Origin: Candidatus Edwardsbacteria bacterium RifOxyA12_full_54_48
GTDB taxonomy: Bacteria > Edwardsbacteria > AC1 > EtOH8
DNA: 64,000 bases
NCBI GenBank assembly: GCA_001777915.1
Contig: MFFN01000004.1
Location: 617,744 to 681,743, forward strand
Reading direction: 5' to 3'
The notes beneath the pieces are model-generated. The model saw only the letters and a list, made by a program, of their open reading frames with translations, made no database searches and had not been told where the DNA came from. Positions 5,901 through 63,532 of the stretch are shown here, piece by piece (position 1 is the stretch's first letter; each line of letters begins with the position of its first letter). A program made the translations under genes and the position numbers.

Positions 5901-6067
5901 CCCGGTCTTATTTATCCTTGATTTTAAAGGGGGTAAAGAGTTATAATAAATGTTCAAATCAACATGGATTCCCGATTCCTCGGGAATGACAATCGACATT
6001 TTTATATATGATCCGCGAAAATCCGTGGCCAATTAATTTAAGCAACAATAATTGCGAGGGAATTCAA

Positions 6068-8568: not shown

Positions 8569-8569
8569 T

Positions 8570-8960
8570 ACCGGCCACAGAGATTTTTTATATTGTAGGG
8601 GCGAAAGGTCTTTCGCCCGGACCTCATTACCAGGCAATACAGTCATTCCCGTGCCGACGGGAATCCATGGGACCAGCCCCTTTTTAACCACCAAGACACC
8701 AAGGCACAGAGATTTTTGTCACCCTGAGTTTTCCTTCTGTCTGGCAGGATGAGTGCCTTCGCCGTAGCTGCGGCACTCGAGGTAGCCAATTATAAAAGCG
8801 AAGGCGAAATGGGTGACGATAACGCCATTTCAACCACAGAGGGCACAAAGAAAACATTATCGTAGGGCGGATCGCGATCCGCCCAGGTTCTCCGCCTGCC
8901 AAGGCAGGTCATTCCGGTGCAGACGGGAATCCAGGGCCAACATTTTTATAATTTCAATAA
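8570..8960. repeat. Intergenic tract with three or more copies of the dispersed mosaic repeat family, minus orientation relative to the 57.6-59 kb copies
   Basis: Hairpins 'gtcattcccgtgccgacgggaatcca' and 'gtcattccggtgcagacgggaatcca'. 'ttaaccaccaagacaccaaggcacagagattttt' is the reverse complement of 'aaagtctttgtgccttagtgtcttggtggttaa' at 57.99 kb. Also a strong hairpin gggcgaaag-gt-ctttcgccc. Confidence 0.7.
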
Positions 8961-8975
8961 TCAGATAGAGCGAAG

Positions 8976-12463: not shown

Positions 12464-12495
12464 GGGTTACTACGAGTGTGTGCTCGTAGTAACCC
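12464..12495. other. Perfect 13-bp inverted repeat (gggttactacgag-tgtgtg-ctcgtagtaaccc) at the junction between ino1 and the AT-rich island
   Basis: Read directly from the sequence. It sits 16 bp after the ino1 stop. There is no T-run, so it is not a classical intrinsic terminator. Confidence 0.6.
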
Positions 12496-12520
12496 TAACA
12501 ATGAGAGTGAGGGATCTGTA

Positions 12521-12787
12521 ATGGAAATTAAAATCGGCGCAGATGAGCTTATTCTTTGGCTAAGGAAAACCAATAACGCCGTAGGCAGAAACAATAAAGA
12601 TTTAGGCAAAGAAATACGACAACAAATTGAAAGCCTTGGCGGTATTTTAATCAACGAAGATGTTGATGTACATTGGTCCAATGAAGGTCATAATATTGGA
12701 GATACGAATTTACCGAAAACAGCAGCACAGTACACAATAGATACAAGTAAATTGTGCAAACTATATGAATGGCTAACCACCTTATAA
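12521..12787 (+). CDS. Hypothetical small protein (88 aa) in the AT-rich island
   Basis: ORF with GAGGGA RBS 7 nt upstream of ATG 12521. Low GC. No recognisable motif. Confidence 0.3.
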   Translation: MEIKIGADELILWLRKTNNAVGRNNKDLGKEIRQQIESLGGILINEDVDVHWSNEGHNIGDTNLPKTAAQYTIDTSKLCKLYEWLTTL

Positions 12788-12884
12788 CGATTAAGTAATT
12801 TATTTGGCAATCCAATGTATCCAATAGTCGAAAAAATGCTCGTAAAAAATAAAGAGGTGCTGTTTAATAAAAAAAGGAAGTATC

Positions 12885-13739
12885 ATGAATACAAAAACCA
12901 TCTTTTTATGCTTCTCATTTTTTACCTATTCGTTACTTTTTGCACAAAGTAATATGGATATATTGGGACCAAAACCCAAACCAATAGAAAATGATACTTC
13001 TACCGGGCCACATTATGATAGTGATAAGCAGAGGCCATCACAAAAGAATAAAAGTTTAACAATTGTTACTCCCAAGTTGTATTGTAATTCAGAAATAATT
13101 GAAAAGGAAAAAATAAAACAGATAATAAATATTGTAAAAAAAGACATATATCAAGTTTATCCAGAATTAAATAAAAAATTAGCTGGTAAAAGCGATCTTG
13201 AAAAAGAAGCTTACTTAGAAACAGAGGATGGAAAAAATTATGTTACAGATTTAAAAGAACGAAGATCTGATATTATTAATTCTTCATTTCTATTTAAATT
13301 AGAATCTTCACTCCCCGATTATGACCCCAGTATTAATGCTTTTGAAATATCTATCAAAGATTATCTATCAATTGATGATAGTTATACAAGTATTCAAAGC
13401 AGCAAAAGCAACAAAATATTCTATACAAACACAATAAATGCTATTTGGTGTAACGGGCTGCCTATAAAAATAAAATCGTTTCGTGGGGTATACTACTCCG
13501 TATTACGGATTAATCCTGGCTCTAAAGCAACAGCACTTATGTTGGAAAGAAACAAACATAACATTCATATTTATTTTGGGTTTAGATTAAGCGGGAAACT
13601 TAAGAAACTGCCGTATACTTCACTTCATAATGATGATATAGTGTGGGAAAGCTATGCTATGGCTAAAGATATGGTTATATTGTTGGTAGATTCAAAAACG
13701 GACAAAGTAGTATTTTCCAGAATGTATCATACAAAATAA
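12885..13739 (+). CDS. Hypothetical secreted protein (284 aa) in the AT-rich island
   Basis: Signal peptide MNTKTIFLCFSFFTYSLLFAQ. Asn/Lys/Ser-rich. ~30% GC versus ~63% in flanking genes. Confidence 0.45.
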   Translation: MNTKTIFLCFSFFTYSLLFAQSNMDILGPKPKPIENDTSTGPHYDSDKQRPSQKNKSLTIVTPKLYCNSEIIEKEKIKQIINIVKKDIYQVYPELNKKLAGKSDLEKEAYLETEDGKNYVTDLKERRSDIINSSFLFKLESSLPDYDPSINAFEISIKDYLSIDDSYTSIQSSKSNKIFYTNTINAIWCNGLPIKIKSFRGVYYSVLRINPGSKATALMLERNKHNIHIYFGFRLSGKLKKLPYTSLHNDDIVWESYAMAKDMVILLVDSKTDKVVFSRMYHTK

Positions 13740-16566: not shown

Positions 16567-16852
16567 CTTTCGAAAATAGTTATTGGTCTTTAGTTAATAG
16601 GGGTTTACCTTTGCCACCAAGCATGCACTGAGCGATGCCGAAATGACACTAAGATATTTAATCTGTTTATTGTCATTCCGAGATGATTGTCAACCCAACA
16701 GATTTGGTGATCCTTCGGCTTGGCGGGATCAGAAAATTTTTTCGAACGACCACCCCTAAATCCCCTCCTTGATCAAGGAGGGGACAGGGGAGGTCAAAAC
16801 GACTCGGAACATGGTTATACCGATTATAAAAACAAATATTATTTGAGGACTT

Positions 16853-21006: not shown

Positions 21007-21009
21007 TGG

Positions 21010-21545
21010 TTTTGGAACACGGATCGAGTCAGGTAGGTTCTCTCACCAAGCCACCAAGGATTTATCAATTTACTTAGGCACACTTTGAGAACCCAGGCAT
21101 TTGCGTCATTCTGGGCTTGCTTTGAAGCTATCCACGTCGAAGAATCTGTCGATGGATCACTGAAGGTATATCACACAAAGCCACTAAGACACGACGTTAT
21201 TACTTAATAGAGCATTGTCACCACTTCGAAAATTTTATTTTTGCCAACCTCAGTGCAGGCTCTGGGGTCTCTTCCCGCTTGGCAGGTTGAAGGGGTGGCA
21301 AAAGGCTATGCTCACACATTCAGCCAGTCAGGCAAGGTGGCCTTCTCTGTGTGACAGTTTTATTTTTAAGCGTTCAAATTTTAATTTATCACACAAAGCC
21401 GCCGAGCCACGAAGCCCACTGGTTTGCCAGAGATGGATTCGGTTGATGGCTACAAGTTAATTTATAGATTAATTCAGCTTGGTGTCTTGGTGGCAAATAA
21501 CATAGAAGGCTGATAATATCAAAAATCCTTAAAAAAAACGGGGAG
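21010..21545. repeat. Repeat-rich intergenic tract between pstB2 and phoU, with mosaic-repeat modules in both orientations
   Basis: 'caccaagccaccaagg' (21.04 kb), 'cacacaaagccactaagacacgacgttattacttaatag' (21.17 kb), 'cacacaaagccgccgagccacgaag' (21.39 kb) and the forward 'cttggtgtcttggtggcaaat' (21.48 kb). All share motifs with the 8.6, 56.9 and 58 kb loci. Confidence 0.65.
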
Positions 21546-21550
21546 CGCCA

Positions 21551-22213
21551 ATGGAAAGACATTTTGATACCGAGTTGACCCAGCTGAAACAGCAGCTGCT
21601 GAAGATGGGGGCCCTGGCCGAGGCCATGATAGACGCCGCGGTCACCGCCCTGGTGGAAAGGAACGCTGATCAGTTGAAGCAGATATATGAGAATGAGAAG
21701 CAGGTCAATAACCTTCAGGTGAGCATAGACGAGGACTGCTTGCGATTGACCGCCCTCTACCAGCCCACCGCCGGAGACCTGCGCTTCCTGCTGGGAGCCT
21801 CCAAGATCAACACCGAACTGGAGCGGCTGGGCGACCAGGCCATCAACATCTGCGAGGTGGTCAATAAGCTGCTGCAGGAGCCTCAGCTCAAGCCGCTGAT
21901 AGACATCCCCAAGATGGTGTCCATCGCCACCGACATGGTCCGGGACAGCCTGAACGCCTTCGTGGAGCGCAATGTCGACAAGGCCCGGGCGGTGCTGCTG
22001 CAGGACGACCAGCTGGACGACCTGAAGGACAAGATAGTGGCCGAGCTGACCGAGTTCATGACCAAGGATTCCGGCTCGGTCAGCCGGGCCATTCAGCTGA
22101 TCCTGGTGGCCCGCAGTCTGGAACGGATAGGCGACCATGCCACCAACATCGCCGAGGACGTCATCTTCGTGGTGCAGGGCAGGGATATCCGGCATCATGC
22201 GCAAGATATGTGA
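21551..22213 (+). CDS. phoU: Phosphate transport system regulator PhoU
   Basis: Two PhoU repeats, each with the 'E..V..LGD.A.NI.E' pattern (ERLGDQAINICE and ERIGDHATNIAE). Confidence 0.85.
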   Translation: MERHFDTELTQLKQQLLKMGALAEAMIDAAVTALVERNADQLKQIYENEKQVNNLQVSIDEDCLRLTALYQPTAGDLRFLLGASKINTELERLGDQAINICEVVNKLLQEPQLKPLIDIPKMVSIATDMVRDSLNAFVERNVDKARAVLLQDDQLDDLKDKIVAELTEFMTKDSGSVSRAIQLILVARSLERIGDHATNIAEDVIFVVQGRDIRHHAQDM

Positions 22214-27314: not shown

Positions 27315-27973
27315 TCGTGCCCGCCGGAGCCATCATATTCTACAGCGATCAGGTGATGCCGGAGAACGAAAGGCTGGACAGGCGGTTCCTTGAGCTGATC
27401 AACAAAGACCGGCCGAAGCTGGCTTACATCCCTTCGGCTTCGGACGGCACCCGGAGATATTATCGCGAGAAGTGCCAGTATTATAAAAGGTACGGCATAG
27501 AGGATCTTTTATATTTCGACCTGAACAGGGAATACGATCCGGCTAAGACCGAAGAACTGCTGGCCTGTGATGCCATTCATCTATCCGGCGGTGATCCGTT
27601 CCAGTTTTTGGGATCTATCAGAAAACGAAAATTTGGGCCGGTGCTGAAAGAATATCTGAATAAAGGCGGCATACTGCTGGGCATCAGCGCCGGGGCCATA
27701 GTGCTGACCCCCAGCATCAACATCTCGCATGTCTTTTATAGATCCCGGACCGACCAGCATCAGGCGGTGAGCCTGGTGGATTTTCACTTTTTGCCGCACT
27801 GGAACTTGCGGCAAGACCAAGTGGATGCCGTTAAAAAGTTCTCCATAGATAACCAAGCCATGGTCTATGCCTGCCAGGACGGGGACGGGATGGTGGTCCA
27901 CGACGGCAATATAGAATTGGTGGGAAATGTGGTGAGGATAGAGAAGGGAAAGGCTTTTGTAAATAATGAATGA
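27311..27973 (+). CDS. Peptidase S51 (dipeptidase E / cyanophycinase-like) family protein
   Basis: 'LAYIPSASDG...' N-terminus, 'IHLSGGDPFQFL' and 'GISAGAIVL' (catalytic Ser in a GxSAG context). ~220 aa. Confidence 0.55.
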   Translation: MIVPAGAIIFYSDQVMPENERLDRRFLELINKDRPKLAYIPSASDGTRRYYREKCQYYKRYGIEDLLYFDLNREYDPAKTEELLACDAIHLSGGDPFQFLGSIRKRKFGPVLKEYLNKGGILLGISAGAIVLTPSINISHVFYRSRTDQHQAVSLVDFHFLPHWNLRQDQVDAVKKFSIDNQAMVYACQDGDGMVVHDGNIELVGNVVRIEKGKAFVNNE

Positions 27974-28751
27974 TTCTGAGATCAAACAATATTGGGAAGA
28001 AAATGCCGAGGCTTGGACGGCTCTTTCCCGGGCCGGGTATGACGTATACCGTGATCATGTTAACGCTCCAGCTTTCTTGAAGATGTTGCCCTTGGTCAAA
28101 GGCCAGAAGGGGATGGATATCGGATGTGGTGAAGGACATAACACAAGGCTAGTGGCCCAGCAGGGTGCAATCTTAACAGGAATAGATATATCGGAAGCTT
28201 TTATAAAGCAAGCTATAAGCAAGGAGACGGAGCACCCTTTGGGAATAAAGTACCAGGTTTCCTCGGGACAGAAAATGGATTTCACTGAAGGAAGCTTCGA
28301 TTTCTGCATGGCCACAATGAGTTTAATGGACATGGCTGATCCGATAAAGGCCATAGGTGAAGCATATCGGGTTCTTAAACCAGGCGGGTTTTTCCAATTT
28401 TCGATATCGCATCCCTGTTTTGCCACCCCGAAATGGAAATGGCTAAGGGACGAGTCCGGCCGGAAATCAGCTTTAGCCTGCGGTGATTATTTCCTTCAAC
28501 CCAAGGATAGTATCGAAAAATGGATATTTGGAGCGGCTCCGGATGAAGAAAAGAAAAAATACCCACTTTTCAAGACCCCTCGTTTTACATTGATCTTGAG
28601 CAATTGGATCAACTTCTTGATAAAGGCCGGATTTACAATAGAAGAACTTTGCGAACCGTATCCCGATGAAGAAACCGCCAATAAGTGTCCGGATGTGGCC
28701 GATGCCTCCATTGTGGCATATTTTTTAATCATACGTTGCAGGAAACCATGA
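27966..28751 (+). CDS. Class I SAM-dependent methyltransferase
   Basis: Motif I 'GMDIGCGEGHNT'. Acidic motif II 'GIDISEAFI'. Motif 'FDFCMATMSL'. Confidence 0.75.
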   Translation: MNDSEIKQYWEENAEAWTALSRAGYDVYRDHVNAPAFLKMLPLVKGQKGMDIGCGEGHNTRLVAQQGAILTGIDISEAFIKQAISKETEHPLGIKYQVSSGQKMDFTEGSFDFCMATMSLMDMADPIKAIGEAYRVLKPGGFFQFSISHPCFATPKWKWLRDESGRKSALACGDYFLQPKDSIEKWIFGAAPDEEKKKYPLFKTPRFTLILSNWINFLIKAGFTIEELCEPYPDEETANKCPDVADASIVAYFLIIRCRKP

Positions 28752-29158
28752 ATTGTATAATCATCTATTCCACCTTTCCTTCCCGGGAGCTGGCCGAAAG
28801 AACGGCCCGCACCCTGCTGGAGGAACAATTAGTGGCCGGGGCCAATATGGTTCAGGCCGAATCCCTGTTCCGCTGGCAGGGGAAGATCGAGCAGCGGGCC
28901 GAATGGGCGGTGTTCTTTCAGGCCGAGCGGAATTTTTACAAACGGATAGAATCACGCATCAAACAACTGCATTCCGACCAGACCCCCCAGATCGTGATGT
29001 GGAAGATGAAGGACGGATACGTTCCGTTTCTCAACTGGGTGATCGACCAGACCAGCCGCCCGGTGCTGAAAAGGGAGCGGAGGGATAAGGGCAAAGAGTT
29101 CCGGAAGAAGAAGTCCGAGCTGTTGAAGGGAAGAAAAAAAGATGGAACGGCAAGCTGA
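28748..29158 (+). CDS. cutA: Divalent-cation tolerance protein CutA with Lys/Arg-rich C-terminal extension
   Basis: 'IIIYSTFPSRELAERTARTLLEEQLVAGANMVQAESLFRWQGKIEQRAEWAVFF' is CutA1-like. The extra ~30-aa tail is [26 protein letters not shown]. Confidence 0.65.
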   Translation: MNCIIIYSTFPSRELAERTARTLLEEQLVAGANMVQAESLFRWQGKIEQRAEWAVFFQAERNFYKRIESRIKQLHSDQTPQIVMWKMKDGYVPFLNWVIDQTSRPVLKRERRDKGKEFRKKKSELLKGRKKDGTAS

Positions 29159-33700: not shown

Positions 33701-36645
33701 AAAAGATCCATTCATTCACAGCCGTCCTGCTCCTTGTCTTTGCCGGCGTTTGCCAGGCATGGCAGCAGAGGGTGGAATATAATATCGAAGCCCGGCTGGA
33801 TACGGCAGAGCACAGGATATATGCCACCCAGCACCTGCGGTATTTCAACAATTCGCCGGATACTTTGACCGCTGTTTGGTTCCACCTGTATCCCAATGCC
33901 TACCGGGACAACTCCTCCTTCTTCGCCCGGGAGGCCGAGCAGCAGCAGGATTACCGGTCCCGGCACTCCTCCCCGGAGGATAAGGGATGGATCAAGATAA
34001 ATTCCCTGCTGGTGTCCGACAGCACCGCAGTATTCAAATACGGCCCAGAATATGGTGTCCCATTTATCCGGGGCGGCCGAGCGGATGAAATGGCGATATT
34101 CGGTGATTACGGAGGCACCCACCCGGCTGTTAATAAAAAATTCAAAGAACCAAAATATAAGCTGGATTCCACCTCGGCCAGCCTGGAACTGCCAATTCCC
34201 TTGGCTCCCGGTGATTCAGTAGATTTCTATTTCGATTTTACTGTCAAGGTGCCGAAATTCTTCTCCCGGATGGGGCATGAGGGAACTCATTACGAGATCT
34301 CCCAATGGTATCCCAAGATCGCCGTTTATGATGCCAAGGGCTGGCACGCCGACGGCTACCACTACATCGGGGAATTCTACGGGGATTACGGATCTTTCCA
34401 AGTCGGTTTGGAGACCCCGAAAGACCTCAAAATAGGCGCCACCGGATCGCAGGTGCTTGAATACGACGACCAGGGACAGCCGTTAGACGATATAGCGGGA
34501 TATCACCTGTTCGCCGCCGACAATGTCCATGATTTTGCCTGGTGCGCCGATCCGGAATACATCGAAACCACCGAGCAGCACGGGGATATCGGCATCACGG
34601 TTCTGGTCCGCCCTAAAGATAAAGAACGCTGGAAAAATGTGATGCAGTATGCCAAGGACGCCCTGGATCATTATGGAAGGTGGTACGGCCAATACCCCTA
34701 CCCCGCCCTGACGGTCTGCGACGGCGACATGGCGGCCGGGGGCGGCATGGAGTATCCCAATCTGGTGATCGTTTCCACCGGCGAGGACCAATACACCCGG
34801 ACCCTGGAGATGGTGGTGATGCACGAGATCGGCCACCAGTGGTTCTACGGCATCCTGGGCAACAACGAGATGGACCAGGCCTGGCTGGACGAGGGTATCA
34901 ACTCCTTTTCGGAGCAGAGATATTTTGAGGAGAAATACGGGCCGGCCGGCAACTACCTGGCCAAGGAATCATTAAGAAAATTGCTGCCCGAGGCCAGCAA
35001 CCGGAACGTGGGCCGGATGATTCCCTACCTTTATTCTGCCAATAGAATGGACCAGCCGGTCGATGCCAGGGCCTGCATCTCCGGGGAGATGGGGCAGTAT
35101 GCCGCCAGCGCCTACATGAAGCCGGCGGCCATGATGTGGTGGCTAAAAGGATATCTGGGGAATTCTACTTTCGACCGGGTGATGCAGGGTTATTACCGCG
35201 ACAACCAGTTCCGACATGTCGGTACTGAAAAATTCTATGAAGCAGTGGAAAAATATTCACAAAAAGACGTCAAGCCATATTTTGCCCCCTGGTTAAAAAC
35301 CACCGGAATGAGCGATTACTCGGTGGCTTCGGTGCGTCAGATAAAGGAACAAAGAAATACCTACAGTATCACCCTGGCCAGAAAGGGGAATCTGGCCATC
35401 CCGGCGGCATTTTCAGCCGAGGATGCCATCAATAAAAAATACGACGTTTTATGGAGCGGCAGGGGAAGGGATACAACCTTTCTTCTGCAGACCGACGGAA
35501 AGCTGGTCTCCGCAGTGATCGATCCCGACAATGTTTTACTGGAGACCAATCGCTGGAATAACTGCCGGCCCCGCAGATACAGGGTAACCCTGGGTCCCCG
35601 CCTGCCGTCCTTCGAATCGTACAACATGTTCTGGCTGCCGGTTCCCTGGTACGATAATGTCAACGGTTTTAGGTTGGGAACCATGCTGCACGGGGCCTAC
35701 CTGGCCGACGGCGATCCCATGGTGGGACATCATCAGTGGACCTTCTCGCCCTTCTACGGCTTCAAGTCCAAAGAGATCAGCTTCAGCTTCGATTACCAGA
35801 CCCCGGTGGGCTTGCGCCCCCGACCGCCCCGGGCATATCTTACCGCCGGCTCGGCCTTCGACATCAACTACGCCGGGATCGGGCTCAAACGGACCTGGGG
35901 GCCGCGGCTGATGCTGGATCCCACCGAGAGCTTCGACCTGAAGCTGGATTATACCCGCTACAAGGATTACCGCTTCTGGGACCCCCGGGATGTCGATACC
36001 GCAGCGGTGGTCAGCCTGATGGCCCAGCGGGGTTATGGCCTGACCCGGCATTGGGGCCGGTCATCGTTCCTCAGCCGGATAACGATAGGATACATACAGC
36101 GGCCGGAATCGGATATCAATAATTATCTCAAATTCGAACTGGAGGAGAAGCTCAACGTCAGGATCAATAAACATATCAACCCCAGATTCCGGCTGACTGT
36201 CGGTTACATCCAGGGGCCGGCCCCGGCTCAGGAGCAGTTCTTTCTGGCCGGGAGTTTCAAGACCACCGGCCTGGACAACATGCTGGCCTCCGGAAAGGAC
36301 TGGTTCTCCACCCAGGAGCATTACCACGTGGACGGCGGGGCCAATCTGCCGGGATATTACGGCACCCATATCCGGGGCCGGAATATGTGGGCGGTCAACC
36401 TGACCCTGCCGGTTATGAAAAGCCCGCTGTCACTTTTCGCCGGGGCCGGGCAGGTGTCCAACGATTGGTTGGAGTTCACCGCCGGAAGCATCCGGGCCGA
36501 TGCCGGGCTGTCATTGGCCCTGGGGCCCATGCGGCTGATGTTCCCGCTGTGGATAAATAAACCCGAAGAGGGCAAGAAACAGTTCGATTGGCGGTGGACC
36601 ATCGGCTTCGGCGGCAGCGGGGAAGGGATGGGGATAAAGTTTTAA
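33697..36645 (+). CDS. M1-family zinc metallopeptidase (aminopeptidase N-like) fused to a large C-terminal putative outer-membrane beta-barrel domain
   Basis: Signal peptide. 'VVMHEIGHQWFYG' (HExxH) plus 'WLDEGINSF' (downstream Glu) make the gluzincin M1 signature. The last ~400 aa show alternating aromatic/hydrophilic beta-strand patterning and end in ...GMGIKF, a C-terminal Phe typical of OMPs. Confidence 0.7.
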   Translation: MKKIHSFTAVLLLVFAGVCQAWQQRVEYNIEARLDTAEHRIYATQHLRYFNNSPDTLTAVWFHLYPNAYRDNSSFFAREAEQQQDYRSRHSSPEDKGWIKINSLLVSDSTAVFKYGPEYGVPFIRGGRADEMAIFGDYGGTHPAVNKKFKEPKYKLDSTSASLELPIPLAPGDSVDFYFDFTVKVPKFFSRMGHEGTHYEISQWYPKIAVYDAKGWHADGYHYIGEFYGDYGSFQVGLETPKDLKIGATGSQVLEYDDQGQPLDDIAGYHLFAADNVHDFAWCADPEYIETTEQHGDIGITVLVRPKDKERWKNVMQYAKDALDHYGRWYGQYPYPALTVCDGDMAAGGGMEYPNLVIVSTGEDQYTRTLEMVVMHEIGHQWFYGILGNNEMDQAWLDEGINSFSEQRYFEEKYGPAGNYLAKESLRKLLPEASNRNVGRMIPYLYSANRMDQPVDARACISGEMGQYAASAYMKPAAMMWWLKGYLGNSTFDRVMQGYYRDNQFRHVGTEKFYEAVEKYSQKDVKPYFAPWLKTTGMSDYSVASVRQIKEQRNTYSITLARKGNLAIPAAFSAEDAINKKYDVLWSGRGRDTTFLLQTDGKLVSAVIDPDNVLLETNRWNNCRPRRYRVTLGPRLPSFESYNMFWLPVPWYDNVNGFRLGTMLHGAYLADGDPMVGHHQWTFSPFYGFKSKEISFSFDYQTPVGLRPRPPRAYLTAGSAFDINYAGIGLKRTWGPRLMLDPTESFDLKLDYTRYKDYRFWDPRDVDTAAVVSLMAQRGYGLTRHWGRSSFLSRITIGYIQRPESDINNYLKFELEEKLNVRINKHINPRFRLTVGYIQGPAPAQEQFFLAGSFKTTGLDNMLASGKDWFSTQEHYHVDGGANLPGYYGTHIRGRNMWAVNLTLPVMKSPLSLFAGAGQVSNDWLEFTAGSIRADAGLSLALGPMRLMFPLWINKPEEGKKQFDWRWTIGFGGSGEGMGIKF

Positions 36646-36735
36646 ATATTCGGTCTCCTCGATACTAGCCTTTGGCTAACTCGGTAACCGAAAAATACGA
36701 TTGTCCGATTTTGGTCATTAAGCACAGATTGAGTT

Positions 36736-37032
36736 ATGTCTATGATGGGTTACATGTACATACTTAAGTGCAATGATGGCACCTATTATACCGGCAGTAC
36801 AGTGAACCTCAAAAAAAGACTGAACGAACACCAAAGTGGTGTGGGGGCGAACTACACAAAAAAACGGTTGCCGGTTGATTTGGTTTATTATGAAGAATAT
36901 CCCAGAATAGATCAGGCATTCTATCGGGAAAAGCAGATACAAAACTGGAGTCGAAAAAAGAAAAAATCATTAATAATGGGCGAGTTTTCAGAGTTACCAA
37001 AGCTGGCCAAGAAAATTTTTAGAAAAAGCTAA
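36736..37032 (+). CDS. GIY-YIG nuclease family protein (UPF0213-like), in a low-GC mini-island
   Basis: 'GYMYILKCNDGTYYTGSTVNLKKRLNEHQSG' contains the GIY...YIG/YTG motif. 98 aa. Low GC relative to the backbone. Confidence 0.7.
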   Translation: MSMMGYMYILKCNDGTYYTGSTVNLKKRLNEHQSGVGANYTKKRLPVDLVYYEEYPRIDQAFYREKQIQNWSRKKKKSLIMGEFSELPKLAKKIFRKS

Positions 37033-37201
37033 TAAAAAACCGCCAGGGTTAATATTTGTTATTTTTTCAGCGCACTTAATATTGTTAAGCCTGGTCGTCG
37101 AGTGCCGGACAGAATCAGGCGCTATAAAGCACCTCCACTCTGAACCGGCGTATCGAGACGACAGGAAGGTAATGCATTATTTTATCAGGCAATAAAAAGG
37201 C

Positions 37202-53803: not shown

Positions 53804-54335
53804 TCCGCCGGACAAAATAATAAAATGCCTTGGGTCATCAAGAGGCGACGAAACAACGCGGTGCAATATTCAGGCTGCTTAGGGCCGGGCCCAAACCAGC
53901 CGGGATTGAAAACAGAATCTTTTGTCTGGTAGGAGATTTACTTTAAAGTGTGACATTTAATAAAATATGTGCCATAATGTCGCAAATTTATTAAATCTAT
54001 AAATAACAATACCTTAACATATCTAATCCTTTCGACAATAAGAGCCAGTGAGACATAATGTCTCATTGGCTTTTGTGTTTTAATATAAAGGCAACATATA
54101 TAAATTATAACATATTGTGATGCATCGTCTTGATTAAATAGAAAAAGAATTGCTTCTTGGCATGAATATTGGAAACCTTAATAAATGACAGTCATTTTAA
54201 AGTCATTCAAGAAACAGCTAATTTGAAAGCAGATGAAACTCAGTCTCCGGTGGTTCCCACGGGAATCGTTCCAGATGTTTGATCACTTAGCGGTACCAAA
54301 GGCCCATCCAGCTTCCATGACAAAGGTGGCATAAA
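53804..54335. other. AT-rich (~30% GC) 530-bp non-coding tract. No ORF; palindromes present.
   Basis: Near-perfect 13-bp inverted repeat gccagtgagacat|aatgtctcattggc at ~54.04 kb. Also 'tgacagtcattttaaagtcattca' direct repeats. The base-composition break against flanking 60-65% GC is sharp. Confidence 0.6.
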
Positions 54336-56151: not shown

Positions 56152-56787
56152 ATGGCATCTTCAGGCAATCAAGCGCAAAAGTACAAATGCCCCTGCGGCA
56201 AGAGTTATTACACCGTCCACAGCTACTACGATCAGGCCGGCTTGTTTGACGAGCATTGGGAGATGAACTGCTGCCGATGCAAACAGCGCTACCAGCTCAG
56301 TTCGCTCCTCAAGGAGAGCGGCCGGGGCCTCAACGAGGCCTATCTCTGGGCCCCAATAAACATCTTCAGCGAGCTGGCCATCGTGGAGGACCAGTTGCAC
56401 CGGGCCCAGGGCGATATGCTGGCCCTGGCCCGGGAGCTGTATCTGGATCGCTGGCTTGGGCACTTCTCCGGGGTTAAGGCCAGAAAAGATATCTGGCGGC
56501 GCCTGACCGACGGCGGGAAACGGGAGCCCAGCTACCGGCTGTTCGTTCGTTCGGCGCCCCGGGACAATCTGGAGGACTATCTGCAGAGATACTTCCACTA
56601 TTTCAACGTGGACCATATCCTGGAGAAGCTGGGGGTGCGGGACATCCGGCTGGATGAGATGAAAGGCCGGATCGCCGAACTGCAGACCGGCCGGGAAAGG
56701 GCCCAGGGCCTGCTGAGGATGGAAGGTTTTGCTGGACGGAGCGAATACCGGTGGGGATCATCAATAAAAACCGATAGGCGTGTATAG
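56152..56787 (+). CDS. Hypothetical protein with N-terminal Cys4 zinc-ribbon-like motif (212 aa)
   Basis: 'KCPCGKSYY…NCCRCKQRY' looks like a C-x-C…C-x2-C ribbon. The rest is helical/charged. Start taken at Met 56152. Confidence 0.3.
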   Translation: MASSGNQAQKYKCPCGKSYYTVHSYYDQAGLFDEHWEMNCCRCKQRYQLSSLLKESGRGLNEAYLWAPINIFSELAIVEDQLHRAQGDMLALARELYLDRWLGHFSGVKARKDIWRRLTDGGKREPSYRLFVRSAPRDNLEDYLQRYFHYFNVDHILEKLGVRDIRLDEMKGRIAELQTGRERAQGLLRMEGFAGRSEYRWGSSIKTDRRV

Positions 56788-56789
56788 TA

Positions 56790-57100
56790 GGGTCGGGATT
56801 CAGCCCCGACCCCGGCTATCATGTCATCCCGGTTCCGCAGCAAGTGCGGGATAAATTCCGACAGGGATGACGGGATTTAACTACCAAGACACTAAGACGC
56901 CAAGAATTTTTACTTAATACCGGACTAAGGTGTCATTCCTGCCCATCCCTCACTCCCTCACCGCTGCGGGGAGAGCCTGCACTGAGGACGGCAGTTATTT
57001 TTGCCGACCGAAGTGGAGGCCGATAGGCAGTGAGGGGTCAGGATAGGCGGGGAACCGGGGGCCGTCCCACATCTCTGACGCGGATATAACCACAGGAGAC
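56790..57100. repeat. Repeat tract with 'gtcatcccg…cgggat' hairpins, a 'ccaagacactaagacgccaag…ttacttaata' module, and a GC-rich imperfect palindrome
   Basis: Shares 'cactaagac…ttacttaata' with 21.17 kb and 20.14 kb. 'ggtgtcattcctgccc' is a half-hairpin. Confidence 0.55.
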
Positions 57101-57106
57101 AGGGAA

Positions 57107-57376
57107 ATGTATAGCATCGAGGTAAGCGAAAGGGAAAAAATGTTGGGCTACGCCCTGAGCCCCGTTCCGAATCCCGCCGGTAAACTGCCGGGGGAGCCGG
57201 AGCAGGTCCTGGCGGTGGCCTATACACTGGACGAAGAGAACCTGATCGTCAAAAAGCTGTATCCCATGGGGGGTTGCCGGTATTGGCATTTGAAAAAGGC
57301 CAGCGATGACTGGAGAACGGTGAGCAATGTGGAGCCCGACCCGGGAAAGGCCATCGAGCGGGCCAGGCTAGGATGA
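57107..57376 (+). CDS. Hypothetical protein (89 aa)
   Basis: ORF with a GGAG-like RBS (acaggagacagggaaATG). No motif recognised. Confidence 0.3.
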   Translation: MYSIEVSEREKMLGYALSPVPNPAGKLPGEPEQVLAVAYTLDEENLIVKKLYPMGGCRYWHLKKASDDWRTVSNVEPDPGKAIERARLG

Positions 57377-57599
57377 CCGCCTCCTCACTCCATCCAATTT
57401 GCCTGCCGGCACCAGTTGCTTGAGACCATCGGACAGGGGATGATTTTTTTATGCCGGGATGAAGGCCTTGGCCGGGCCTGCGGCCAGATCAAAGGCCGGA
57501 AGCGCAAGGCTAAAAAATCTCCCGGGGGTTCAGCGGCAAAACAGTTTTCATTTGACAAGCCATATCCAAAGCGGTATATTAATACTTGTAAAAGTATTT

Positions 57600-58060
57600 T
57601 TAAACCGCTTTTTTAACGCCTCGGCTCAGGGGAAACCGATGTTCAACCAACCCAGTATTAAGTTCAAAGATTAAAGAATAAAAGCCTTTGTGTATTTTGT
57701 GCACCTTTCGACTTGGCTCCGGGAATTCTTTGTGGTTAAAAGGTACCTGAGATTGCTTCGGCTGTGAATCTTTGGTGCCATCCCCGCAATGACACGGAAG
57801 GCAGGCAGAAAGCCGGTAAATAATGAAAGCCTTTGTGTCTTTGTGCTTAAAAGATTCTAAGGCTTGGCGGGTAGGCTGCCGGGCTCAGAATGACGAAAGC
57901 AATGACATAGGGCCGGAAATATCAGTGAAAATCCGTATTCCATTAAGCCTGGATTCCCGACTTCTCGGGAATGACACCTGGTGCAGGTTAAAAGAGTAAA
58001 AGTCTTTGTGCCTTAGTGTCTTGGTGGTTAATTCCGGTTTAAAATTAAAAATAAAGGAGC
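57600..58060. repeat. Non-coding tract containing direct-repeat unit X1 (~57730-57845) and several mosaic-repeat modules (hairpin 57951-57976)
   Basis: 'ttgtggttaaaaggtacctgagattgcttcggctgtgaatctttggtgccatccccgcaatgacacggaaggcaggcagaaagccgg…aagcctttgtg' is ~80% identical to 58769-58890. Hairpin 'ggattcccgacttctcgggaatgaca' is followed by 'cctggtgcaggttaaaag…ctttgtgccttagtgtcttggtggttaa'. Confidence 0.7.
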
Positions 58061-58064
58061 AGCC

Positions 58065-58469
58065 ATGATAGACCGCATGAACGAAGCCGTGATCAAGGCC
58101 CTGCTGGAGGCCATGCCGGGCGAGATCTCGGTGATCGACCACAACGACGAGGTGATCGGCTGGAACAAGCATGACACCCGGCTGTTCCATAGGCCCATGG
58201 ACAGCATGGGCATCAACTTCCGCAGCTGCCACCCCAAAAGCAGCCTGGCCAAGGTGGAGCAGATCGTGGAGGAGATGAAAAGCGGGAAGCGAGACAGCGC
58301 CAGGTTCTGGATAGACCTGCCGCTGGGACCCAACCAGGAGAAGCACAAGGTGCTGATAGAATTCTTCGCCCTGCGTGACCAGGATAAAAAATACCTGGGC
58401 TGCCTGGAGCACACCATGGATGTCCAGTACATCCGGGAGCTGGAGGGCGAGAAGCGGCTGCTGTCGTAA
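58065..58469 (+). CDS. Stand-alone PAS-like sensor domain protein (134 aa)
   Basis: 'ISVIDHNDEVIGWNKHDTRLFHRPMDSMGINFRSCHP…' and '…FFALRDQDKKYLGCLEHTMDVQYIRELE' follow the PAS fold pattern (ligand pocket, then a beta-sheet ending in D-V-T/Q-x-R). No output domain. Confidence 0.45.
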   Translation: MIDRMNEAVIKALLEAMPGEISVIDHNDEVIGWNKHDTRLFHRPMDSMGINFRSCHPKSSLAKVEQIVEEMKSGKRDSARFWIDLPLGPNQEKHKVLIEFFALRDQDKKYLGCLEHTMDVQYIRELEGEKRLLS

Positions 58470-59056
58470 AAGTTCATAAAGCTTAAAGTTTAAAGAATAG
58501 AAGCCTCTGCGTCTCTGCGGTGAAATGACCCTGGATTCCTGCCTTCGCCGGAATGACACGCAGGACAGGTTAAAAGTGAAAAAGTCTTTGTGTCTTTTAT
58601 GCGCTTTGTGGCAAAACCAGTTTAATGTTCAAAGCTTGTCACACTGAGAAGGCATTCGTGCCCTGCAAGTTGAATGTGTGAAGGGGAATTCGGGAAACAT
58701 AATATTGTCGCCCGTTCAACTTGGCAAGAGTAAAGAATTCTCAGGGTGACAACAACCACTCTGCGTTTCGTGGCTAAAAGACACCTGAGATTGCTTCGCT
58801 TGTGAATCTTCGGCGCCATGCTCGCAATGACAAGAAAGGCAGGTACAAAGCCGGAAAAGAATAAAAGCCTTTGTACGCTTTGTGGTTAAAAGGGACCCTG
58901 GATTCCAGCTGGAGTTTATGCTGAATGCAATGAAGTGCTGGAATGACAAACGCATCAGCGTAAAGCTATAAAGTCTCTCTGTGACCCAGTGTCTCTGTGG
59001 CAAAACCTCAGCCCAGAAGTTAAATAAACCGCTCCGGAAAGGGGCGGCCTTTTTTG
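58470..59056. repeat. Non-coding tract with direct-repeat unit X2 (~58769-58890), three hairpin modules and a terminator
   Basis: Hairpins 'ggattcctgccttcgccggaatgaca' and 'ggattccagctgg…gctggaatgaca'. 'ggttaaaagtgaaaaagtctttgtgtcttttatgcgctttgtggcaaaacc' and 'taaagtctctctgtgacccagtgtctctgtggcaaaacc'. Terminator ccgctcc-ggaaa-ggggcgg + ttttttg at 59029-59056. Confidence 0.7.
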
Positions 59057-59147
59057 TTGATTATTTCTCTTTTATCCGACCCCTTTTTATGTTACTATTT
59101 CTACCGGAAAGCCGAAGCCTTAAATTTTAAATCACCAGCCTATAAAA

Positions 59148-59777
59148 ATGAACTCCGCCCATAACATATTGACCCCGGTCCAGCAGGACGCCCTCAAGGA
59201 GATATTCAACATCGGCTCCGGCAACGCTGCCACCACCCTGTCCGAGGCCATTCATCAGCCAGTGCTGGTATCGGTGCCCCAGATCAAGGTCAGCACCGTG
59301 GAGGAGGCCCTGTCCTCGCTGGTCAAGCCCGACCTGCCGGTGGTCTGCCTGGTCAACATCTTCGTGGGCGACCTCTCCGGCTGCACCCTGTGGCTGATGC
59401 CGGGCGATAGCGCTTTGGCCTTCGCCCAGGAGTGCTGGCACAAGATGCCCCGGGCCAAGAACGAGGCCGAGTTCCATTTCGGGCACATCCATCTGGAGAT
59501 CTCCTCGGTGCTGACCGAGTCCTACCTGAACACCCTGGGCGACATGCTGGAGCTGACCGCCATCCCCTCGCCCCCCCTGATGCTGTCCGGGCCCATGCAG
59601 AAGGTGATGGGGAGGATACTGGGAGAGTACGCCCGTTTCGGCGAGATCCTGGCCTACGTCCAGAACCGGTTCCGTTTCCCCGGCGAGGCCGGGACGGCCA
59701 GCGGCTATTTCATGATGCTGCCGGATGCCGCCTCGCTCAAGCGGATCATGACTGCCATGAAGCTGGAGGGGTCATAG
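59148..59777 (+). CDS. CheC-like (CheC/CheX/FliY family) phosphatase domain protein
   Basis: 'LTPVQQDALKEIFNIGSGNAATTLSEAI' matches the conserved CheC-family D/S-x3-E-x2-N-I-x-x-G motif. ~209 aa with a second pseudo-repeat. Confidence 0.55.
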   Translation: MNSAHNILTPVQQDALKEIFNIGSGNAATTLSEAIHQPVLVSVPQIKVSTVEEALSSLVKPDLPVVCLVNIFVGDLSGCTLWLMPGDSALAFAQECWHKMPRAKNEAEFHFGHIHLEISSVLTESYLNTLGDMLELTAIPSPPLMLSGPMQKVMGRILGEYARFGEILAYVQNRFRFPGEAGTASGYFMMLPDAASLKRIMTAMKLEGS

Positions 59778-62689: not shown

Positions 62690-63532
62690 ATGTTTATTAT
62701 GAAAAGATATTTGCTTTTATTTATACTGATTCTATCAGTCTCGCCCATTGTGAATGCCCTGGATTTGAAAGGCACATTTTGGACGGATGAAAGCAATGCA
62801 TATTTTTTCTTTCAAGATACAACAGTGCTTTTTGAGCATGGGGGGCGTGCTGATAAATTCAAATATTTAATAAAAAATGATAGCCTATACCTTTTTAAAA
62901 ACTACTGGATTGATAAGGACAGTATTAAGCATATTCAATCGTATGGTTTGATATGTGGAATAAAATCAAAGGATTCCTTGTCATTACGGCCATACTTGCC
63001 CGTAGATAATGAATGGGAAAAAGATATCATTGATCCAGTATTAACTGATACAATGAAAACATCAAGGTTTTACAACGTAGAAAAATATTATGATCCATCC
63101 TTGCTTGTCTTTGATAAATTATATTTCATGTTGAATGAATATGACTATAAAGTGGAAATCATAATAGATAAGAACAGAAACTATTATTACCATGGAAAAG
63201 GCGATATTAAAAATAAGGGGTATTACCAAGGCATAATTAGCGATTCGCTTTTTAAAGTACTGGGGAATTTGCTTGAGAAAAGTTGTTTAAGACTAATTAC
63301 ATTAGAGCCTGTTTGTTATGATATTGACACCACAGGAAAAGTATCAAATATTATATTTGTTAAAGATGGTCCCGATTATACATTAAATTTATATGTAGAT
63401 AAGGAAATAATCAATCTTCAAGGCAATAGTTTGCCATACGTGGCTAAAAATCTTTTTAATTTTCTTTCCAAGTCTAATCGTGATGTTAAATTGTTAAAAT
63501 CAAAGAGTGCAAAAAAAGCTTTTGGCCAATAA
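62690..63532 (+). CDS. Hypothetical secreted protein in an AT-rich island (280 aa)
   Basis: Signal peptide MKRYLLLFILILSVSPIVNA. Tyr/Asn/Lys-rich. ~30% GC. Confidence 0.4.
   Translation: MFIMKRYLLLFILILSVSPIVNALDLKGTFWTDESNAYFFFQDTTVLFEHGGRADKFKYLIKNDSLYLFKNYWIDKDSIKHIQSYGLICGIKSKDSLSLRPYLPVDNEWEKDIIDPVLTDTMKTSRFYNVEKYYDPSLLVFDKLYFMLNEYDYKVEIIIDKNRNYYYHGKGDIKNKGYYQGIISDSLFKVLGNLLEKSCLRLITLEPVCYDIDTTGKVSNIIFVKDGPDYTLNLYVDKEIINLQGNSLPYVAKNLFNFLSKSNRDVKLLKSKSAKKAFGQ

Follow-up and report, generated by a model that had tools for sequence, protein, structure and literature searches.

Within a 64,000-nt stretch of Candidatus Edwardsbacteria DNA, hereafter the window, a small gene encoding a stand-alone PAS-domain protein (58065-58469, plus strand, 134 amino acids) is embedded in repetitive non-coding DNA, and the locus raises the question of what these repeats are and whether they serve the gene that they surround. 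An earlier note had considered a composite mobile unit, an array of small structured RNAs or an array of protein-binding sites controlling the PAS gene, while observing that the layout is that of no classical IS, MITE, integron or CRISPR. The last observation is correct, and the modules form a recurring repeat system. We find that the flanks of the PAS gene are arrays resembling the Neisseria intergenic mosaic elements (NIMEs), composed of repeats that are dispersed between the genes of a Candidatus Edwardsbacteria lineage, and in them a hairpin (GTCATTCC..GGAATCC) returns every ~100 nt between AT-richer spacers made of A-rich heptads, CAGGTTAAAAG and tandem CTTNGTGN octads. The gene itself is a bystander and not cargo, and has no need of the arrays. 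This is a new host for a known class of repeat, not a new gene-specific device.

The lone PAS-like reading frame seen at first inspection is a real gene, matching PAS_10 (PF13596) with E = 1.2e-17 in a Pfam scan, and its GC content at third codon positions (GC3) is 0.87, typical for the host genes. It is a resident single-domain sensor that stands outside the repeat system. Its non-coding flanks measure 688 and 678 nt, giving 1.37 kb, or 1.77 kb with the gene included, rather than the ~2 kb originally supposed. The recurrence of modules was correctly recognized, since GGATTCC-N(4-34)-GGAATGAC, the hairpin pattern, turns up six times in the window where 0.02 matches would be expected, a number that none of 100 shuffled sequences reached. 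Hairpins with the invariant arms occur three times in the region (57951, 58533 and a 48-nt form at 58900) and not four times, while three further hairpins (57751, 57853 and 58789) follow the rule GATTxy...y'x'AATGAC with other stems. The tandem repeats are genuine (13 matches against 3.67 expected), but their period is eight (CTTTGTGN) and not the seven first read. The direct repeats that bracket the gene, which we call D1, are likewise real, at 108 nt and 84% identity instead of ~115 bp and ~80%. A second direct repeat pair, D3 (57948-58014 and 58530-58596), extends over 67 nt with 82% identity, both occurrences of the CAGGTTAAAAG module that had been reported lie within it, and there are many shorter families besides. 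A composite unit of hairpin plus octads, 85-117 nt in length, recurs in a single orientation inside an array.

What had been overlooked is that the hairpin is a known element. The sequence GGATTCCCG-N6-CGGGAATGACA is the reverse complement of the NTS/dRS3 repeat of Neisseria, ATTCCC-N8-GGGAAT. This dRS3 palindrome sits within the 28-nt NTS consensus CGTCATTCCCGCGMAVGCGGGAATCYRG (Chenal et al. 2025, PMC11893778), and the repeat is the single-stranded DNA target of the GIY-YIG nuclease SsnA, which binds the hairpin solely in the single-stranded form and cleaves upstream of the palindrome (PMC11893778). Binding is most dependent on the C that lies 3' of the palindrome, and cleavage on the three bases 5' of it, GTC (PMC11893778). 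In the window the exact dRS3 pattern is matched three times, with a further match at one mismatch, against 0.52 expected, and an exact copy is present at the PAS locus (57953-57972), the stems of the remaining copies having undergone compensated changes. At three mismatches the NTS consensus is found at 57949-57976 and 58531-58558, with none expected, and two of the mismatches constitute a compensated pair. The GTC on the 5' side and the C on the 3' side are invariant in 12 of 12 aligned short copies taken from five Edwardsbacteria loci. The hairpin alignment has an 8-bp stem with 96.9% of its cells paired. Covariation, which the earlier note proposed to look for, was observed at two stem pairs (CG/UA and CG/AU/UA) without G-U intermediates, and none of 500 shuffles attained the score. 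Intact copies fold with z between -2.4 and -3.8. More than 120 IMG/VR contigs, of every composition, hold the canonical form TGGATTCCCG-N6-CGGGAATGAC, and the element is therefore very widespread.

The arrangement of the hairpins also has a precedent. In NIME arrays, dRS3 elements are separated by RS families of 50-150 bp, GC content rises and falls as a wave, and syntenic arrays vary in repeat number (Bentley et al. 2007, PMC1797815). In the PAS flanks successive hairpins follow at 99-112 nt from start to start, except for a single gap of 255 nt, the spacers measure 57-231 nt, and the GC content is 0.45-0.60 in the hairpins against 0.38-0.44 in the spacers.

The modules are not confined to the PAS gene. 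Four further intergenic regions of the window are also filled with them, and their direction may agree with that of the genes or be opposite to it, with octads outside the PAS locus at 8.69-8.85, 21.04-21.49 and 56.88-56.90 kb. All ten hairpins of the window are intergenic, whereas intergenic sequence makes up 10.7% of it, and modules are present in 6 of its 21 intergenic regions of at least 100 nt. The neighbouring genes are ordinary, comprising a tRNA synthetase, a cNMP-binding regulator, pst genes with a PhoU-like gene (named by its translation and not by Pfam) and FolC. An array of protein-binding sites specific to PAS finds no support, since the same modules occur between such housekeeping genes. 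Orientation is uniform within an array, and at 8.6-8.9, 21.0-21.4 and 56.9 kb it runs antisense to the plus-strand genes on either side. Beyond the window, hairpin copies occur in the loci L123, L130, L166, L181, L186, L187 and L257 and in the TA06 locus L163, contrary to the possibility that they might be restricted to this stretch; six more distant Edwardsbacteria loci contained no hairpins. The 42-43-nt hairpin type of D1 is found in L123, L130, L166, L181, L187 and L257, and the GATTCT..CAGAATGAC subfamily at 21105-21146 (minus strand) and in L123 at 8890-8932. A metagenome scan with AAAGAATARAAGYCTYTGYG returned 40 stretches, most of them chance matches and only four of the 40 Edwardsbacteria-like. 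FolC of the window shares 94% and 91% identity with the corresponding proteins of two Candidatus Edwardsbacteria (UBP2) metagenome-assembled genomes.

Comparison of five orthologous loci shows how the arrays relate to the gene. The PAS orthologues in L130, L257, L123 and L256 are 97.8, 97.0, 95.5 and 86.6% identical to that of the window. CheC lies downstream in every case, followed by FolC in the window, L130 and L123. Upstream, the window and L257 share the genes from a lipase to p89, while L130 has hemerythrin and NYN genes, L123 has Fic and nucleotidyltransferase genes, and L256 has the genes from the lipase to p91 and a nitroreductase. Arrays flank PAS on both sides in the window, L130, L123 and L257, with different modules in L130 and L123 and a third module set in L257. 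The most distant orthologue, in L256, has flanks of ~85 and ~150 nt that hold no module and give no blastn match to the arrays. Because four loci differ in their modules and L256 is array-free, the arrays were inserted in a lineage-specific manner into the leader and trailer of a gene that was already resident, and PAS was not carried along as mobile cargo. When the window, L130 and L123 are aligned, only the ribosome-binding site with the adjacent octad block and the terminator are kept, and the rest varies as whole modules. The block concerned (57984-58033) is a single module of CAGGTTAAAAG plus octads that holds its position in all three. The last hairpin takes the short form in L130 and the long form in the window; its stem changes are compensated, and homology restarts exactly at the 3' arm.

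These loci also dispose of the idea that the gene and its two flanks make up a composite mobile or cassette-like unit, X1-PAS-X2, with the ~108-nt direct repeats as its ends. It is true that 84% identical repeats bracket the gene and that the genes upstream of PAS vary between species, but the PAS-CheC(-FolC) synteny is maintained in five genomes. None of the five orthologous loci lacks PAS, and what varies is the modules alone, the arrays differing in four and being absent from one. D1 is represented by one copy in L130, upstream only, and by one in L123, downstream only; the bracketing repeats are therefore two members of a dispersed family. Moreover, the GC3 of PAS is host-like and no recombinase gene adjoins the unit. 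This explanation is already contradicted and we give it next to no credence. The marks of a MITE or composite transposon, namely defined ends, a target-site duplication and presence or absence of the unit as a whole, were not found at this locus. Two further classes of element were considered and rejected. For an integron cassette with attC, which would carry an inverse core RYYYAAC and a core GTTRRRY at either end of an imperfect palindrome, the recurrent end GTTAAAAG on reading departs from GTTRRRY and lacks an inverse partner, and the modules lie between housekeeping genes. For CRISPR, Tandem Repeats Finder reveals no array in the flanks beyond a 19-nt stretch of 7-nt units, and the repeat families are heterogeneous.

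Might the modules work as RNA, either as structured elements in the 5' and 3' untranslated regions or as processed small RNAs that control the stability or translation of the PAS mRNA? The region is bracketed by a promoter-like site and a terminator and every module within it is in the sense orientation, yet identical module types are antisense to their neighbours at three other loci of the window. The promoter-like TTGACA-17-TATATT is also present upstream of the array in L257, though not at L130 or L123, and the terminator has counterparts in L130 (9134-9153) and L123 (9161-9182), supported by alignment. Three species retain the octad block beside the ribosome-binding site, but the module content of the orthologous locus varies and one orthologue has none at all. 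In viral contigs, inverted pairs of octads situated 1-27 nt upstream of structural-gene starts fold well (z -4.6 to -8.0), whereas the octads of the PAS locus are direct repeats that are unable to pair with each other. The hairpin stem varies by Watson-Crick changes only, with no G-U variation. Rfam gave no match at the gathering score in the window and none at E<=1 in 57300-59200, and no tRNA or tmRNA gene was found. Taken together this makes control through RNA improbable, including the array of small structured RNAs first envisaged; it retains a small measure of credibility at the PAS locus itself because the modules there are co-oriented between a promoter-like site and a terminator. A 20-nt palindrome of 85% complementarity (57568-57611) overlaps the promoter-like site at its -10 element, and could be an operator.

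A stronger competitor, although we still consider it unlikely, is that the modules belong to the selfish mobile elements that are not autonomous, such as those of the REP/REPIN, MITE or Correia type, and are copied into intergenic DNA by a transposase encoded elsewhere (RAYT, IS110/Piv-like or another), with no Ssn nuclease and no host function. Lineage-specific expansion with an array-free orthologue, strictly intergenic siting, the presence or absence of modules between sister species and the uniformly oriented composite of hairpin and octads would all be in keeping with this. However, neither target-site duplications nor terminal inverted repeats delimit the units, and the invariant residues of the hairpin are exactly those that are important to SsnA. 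The arrays do contain a second hairpin type that ends in a REP-like CTAC, of which there are three occurrences, a count that by pattern alone is not above chance. No transposase or recombinase gene, and specifically no IS200/IS605-like tyrosine transposase gene, was seen among the roughly two-thirds of the window genes that were scanned with Pfam; equally, the failure to find a cognate Ssn in ~350 kb of Edwardsbacteria-like sequence speaks for selfish DNA.

The explanation that we prefer is that NIME-like NTS/dRS3 arrays have been inserted around a bystander PAS gene and are DNA-level targets of the Ssn type, and as a whole we assign it a probability of about 0.65. The arrays entered the short leader and trailer of PAS, and were later reshuffled module by module. 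By analogy with Neisseria, the hairpin would act at the level of DNA by extruding where the DNA is single-stranded, and a small GIY-YIG nuclease of the Ssn type would bind it and cut beside the GTC flank. The arrays might then be both substrates and modulators of recombination, and as recombination substrates they would account for the turnover of the arrays and for the variable genes upstream of PAS. Since they lie between a promoter-like site and a conserved terminator, the arrays are probably transcribed as long untranslated regions, which we would regard as a by-product; the octad block beside the ribosome-binding site may matter for expression.

Several observations weigh against this explanation. 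The first is the common orientation of all modules at the PAS locus with the gene, between promoter-like site and terminator, as described above. Secondly, poor folding is seen in both D1-type units and in two of the six hairpins of the region, in which the stem has an internal mismatch; the hairpin of D1 copy 1 (57751-57793) is unconvincing at z -0.3. Thirdly, the published search criteria failed, both the NTS consensus at one mismatch or fewer and the SRM degenerate pattern, which had no matches in the window, L186 or L187. The SRM pattern does recover canonical NTS copies around GIY-YIG genes in L041, L089 and L018, which served as a positive control, and it misses the window copies because their loop-closing pair is A-T or T-A. 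Finally, no cd10448-type Ssn gene was found in the ~350 kb of Edwardsbacteria-like sequence, nor any Ssn-like reading frame apart from one small GIY-YIG gene of the window. This is a 98-amino-acid single-domain GIY-YIG gene (36736-37032; PF01541, E = 3e-19) of foreign composition, with GC3 of 0.45 against ~0.8 for the host. It is bracketed by another palindrome, inverted GTATCGAG, of which there are exactly two copies in the window, and its protein matches 1zg2, a UPF0213 protein, better (61.5 bits) than it does the Ssn-like proteins (48-50 bits) taken from L041 and L089, where these are sited between canonical NTS copies.

Homologues of this GIY-YIG protein with 70-77% identity occur in Thermospira, Kapabacteria and TA06. 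A GGTCGCYGAGTAGC..GCGTATCGARGCGACC hairpin forms the arrays beside them, and on account of this different hairpin the gene is probably not the cognate nuclease of the GGATTCC hairpin. Judged by sequence, the gene and its GTATCGAG-type hairpin are probably a separate Ssn-like nuclease and motif pair. It has no relatives in the viral contigs. An imperfect hairpin of ~72 nt lies downstream of the gene (region 36645-37170), and its neighbours in the window encode an M1 peptidase/Omp85 protein and a CN hydrolase. In Thermospira and Kapabacteria (L159 1-5300; L160-L162 1-5288) the GIY-YIG gene directly follows an Eco57I/N6_Mtase/TaqI_C restriction-modification gene and further defence-like genes.

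Table 1. Modules and transcription signals of the PAS locus, followed by the other module-bearing regions of the window
Position	Strand	Feature	Basis or remark
57552-57580	+	sigma-70-like promoter TTGACA-17-TATATT	11/12 consensus positions; upstream of 5' array
57657-57744	+	first spacer-type module: A-rich NNNAAAG heptads, then octads 57686-57701, end TCTTTGTGGTTAAAAG	homologous block in L130, 8178-8260
57729-57836	+	direct repeat D1 copy 1, with variant hairpin 57751-57793 (GATTGCTTCG..CCGCAATGAC)	84% to copy 2
57831-57855	+	octad module CTTTGTGTCTTTGTGCTTAAAAG	motif search, reading
57853-57894	+	variant long hairpin GATTCT..CAGAATGAC	5-bp closing stem + 10-bp inner stem, -7.4 kcal/mol
57949-57976	-	NTS/dRS3-type hairpin, minus strand = TGTCATTCCCGAGAAGTCGGGAATCCAG	8-bp stem, 4-nt loop, z -3.84
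57984-58033	+	CAGGTTAAAAG + three octads, ending 31 nt before PAS start codon	D3 repeat, alignment
58476-58524	+	A-rich heptads + octad variant CTCTGCGTCTCTGCGGTGAA	96% identical block twice in L123
58531-58558	-	NTS-type hairpin with one internal mismatch, minus strand = TGTCATTCCGGCGAAGGCAGGAATCCAG	weak fold, -3.7 kcal/mol, z -0.8
58566-58620	+	CAGGTTAAAAG + octads, end GTGGCAAAACC	D3, D6 repeats
58621-58766		non-repeated filler with local 16-nt inverted repeat 58666-58681/58708-58723	repeat finder
58767-58874	+	direct repeat D1 copy 2, with variant hairpin 58789-58831	repeat finder
58866-58893	+	octad module, end GTGGTTAAAAGG	D2, D5, D6 repeats
58900-58948	-	long-loop NTS-type hairpin, stem ATTCCAGC/GCTGGAAT	-7.7 kcal/mol; short form at L130 ortholog position
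58972-59010	+	octad module, end GTGGCAAAACC	D14 repeat; kept in L130
59029-59056	+	intrinsic terminator closing PAS unit	kept in sister loci
5966-5991	-	solitary NTS-type hairpin, upstream of class II tRNA synthetase gene	motif search
8569-8975	-	array, modules opposite to two flanking plus-strand genes	hairpins 8642, 8908; octads 8689-8711, 8835-8850
21007-21552		array between pstB-like and PhoU-like genes	long hairpin 21105-21146 (-), octads on both strands
56788-57106	-	degenerate array, orientation opposite to neighbouring PAS array	octads 56882-56904; half-hairpin GGAATGACA 56931-56939

Within the PAS locus, the filler that is otherwise non-repeated contains CTCAGGGTGACAA, which on reading is present too in the array at 8.7 kb. 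The protein p89 (57107-57376), sited between arrays of inverted orientation, was considered as a repeat-associated protein and rejected; it is an orphan with three homologues, and its synteny is kept even in the array-free L256. In L130 (6813-8039) a hemerythrin gene is situated ~1.2 kb upstream of the PAS_10 gene, with the NYN-domain gene between them. Hemerythrin and PAS_10 are frequently fused in other proteins, and the stand-alone PAS may for this reason have a hemerythrin as partner.

The octads have a distribution of their own. The module extends beyond Edwardsbacteria, its string CTTNGTGNCTTNGTGGYWAAA matching 50 IMG/VR stretches with GC contents from 36 to 65%. Of 42 unique sites, 15 have an inverted partner upstream and 14 are followed within 1-27 nt by a Shine-Dalgarno sequence and ATG; the genes after viral octad pairs include those for a virion structural protein, a major tail protein and another tail protein. 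The pair form reads GCCAC.AAG.CAC.AAG.CAC.AAG, an AT-rich spacer, then CTT.GTG.CTT.GTG.CTT.GTGGC AAAA (L206-L255 of IMG/VR; window 21392-21492), and the array at 21007-21552 holds such an inverted pair (21392-21414/21478-21492). As RNA the inverted pairs fold with -20 to -35 kcal/mol, at the z values given above. Their variable positions are depleted in pairing, with 8 of 45 paired and none at the N inside CTTNGTG (nine pairs). The octad strings had no match in a literature search. Chi sites, DnaA boxes and sigma-54 promoters were dropped by eye as identities for the octads, because the variable positions break each consensus.

Tandem repeats also accompany the hairpin in other taxa, in the same order of NTS hairpin then repeats, and with species-specific heptads. 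Taxon-specific tandem heptads lie downstream of 11 of 142 canonical NTS hairpins in viral contigs and upstream of 2 of 142, against 0.8% of random segments. Examples within 80 nt after the hairpin include CTTGAAC, CCTGATC and AATATTC (L014, L029, L045, L049, L095, L101, L109, L112, L117 and L121). The orientation of viral NTS hairpins relative to nearby gene starts showed no useful asymmetry (21 versus 14 of 126). We tentatively entertain the idea, doubtful as it is, that the octad module (CTTNGTGN two or three times, with the end GTGG-Y-W-AAA) is an undescribed class of cis-element distributed across phyla and phages. When paired it would form a long hairpin with a mismatch at every fourth position, upstream of highly expressed phage structural genes, and as a single arm it would follow NTS-type hairpins in a fixed order. 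If this were true, the architecture of hairpin plus iterons recalls rolling-circle origins and would imply a second protein partner. The octad module is the only part of the system that may be new.

Some further sequences of the window may be recorded. The second, GC-rich hairpin type, followed by (C)TAC-N-ATA (for example GGGCGGATCGCGATCCGCCCTACGATA), lies at 8591-8625, 8858-8885 and 56783-56815, all on the minus strand and inside arrays. A third small intergenic type, TCCCCTCC..GGAGGGGA and CTCCCCTT..AGGGGAG, is present in the window (16760-16795), L130 (8905-8935) and L123 (8960-8990), and the intergenic region at 16.57-16.85 kb has degenerate half-hairpins, GTCATTCC and GAAATGACA. An AT-rich intergenic stretch of 532 nt (53804-54335), upstream of a lipase-like gene, is without copies of the repeat modules. 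Genes of low GC3 (0.24-0.47 against ~0.8 for the host) lie at 12476-13739, 27966-29088 and 62690-63532, mostly without a Pfam match apart from a methyltransferase (27966-28751), and are probably recent acquisitions.

NIME arrays were stated as not observed outside Neisseria (PMC1797815), and were once held to be specific to that genus; the PAS locus extends arrays of NTS/dRS3 hairpins of this type to an uncultured candidate phylum. The link between NTS-type hairpins and a nuclease acting on single-stranded DNA was made only recently, and searches with the published patterns find too few such repeats, as copies with compensated stem changes go undetected. The five orthologous loci, ranging from array-free to differently filled, provide a clean natural series for the origin and turnover of arrays. 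The result also urges caution in annotation, since regions of this kind should not be taken for gene-specific regulatory devices. The octad module beside structural genes in many viral contigs is a separate lead.

It remains to compare the arrays with known repeat systems. Correia repeat-enclosed elements of Neisseria resemble the inverted octad pairs alone, being short inverted repeats just upstream of genes that form hairpins if transcribed; there is no sequence similarity, neither a TA duplication nor defined ends were observed, and the octads of the PAS locus are single arms and not pairs. REP/BIME elements of E. coli and Pseudomonas are likewise short extragenic palindromes in intergenic mosaics with other motifs, and are recognised as single-stranded hairpins. 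However, they differ in sequence, the window genes scanned with Pfam include no RAYT gene, and REPs alternate in orientation where the hairpins here are uniform within an array. NIME arrays are closer, despite spacer families that are unrelated in sequence and the co-orientation here of all units of an array. In both, hairpins stand between spacer families with a GC wave that is high in the former and low in the latter, the arrays flank genes, and syntenic arrays vary in repeat number between genomes. The individual hairpin differs from the Neisseria NTS/dRS3 repeat in its host, the candidate phylum Edwardsbacteria, in a loop-closing pair that is A-T or T-A here and C-G there, in the common occurrence here of long-loop forms of 42-48 nt, and in that no cd10448 nuclease was identified in the sequence searched. 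In other respects the two correspond. They have the same palindrome, ATTCC(C)-N-(G)GGAAT, with its orientation set by GTC on one side and C on the other, the same 8-bp stem and 4-nt loop, often GMAV-like on the NTS strand, and both are multi-copy, intergenic and clustered on both sides of genes.

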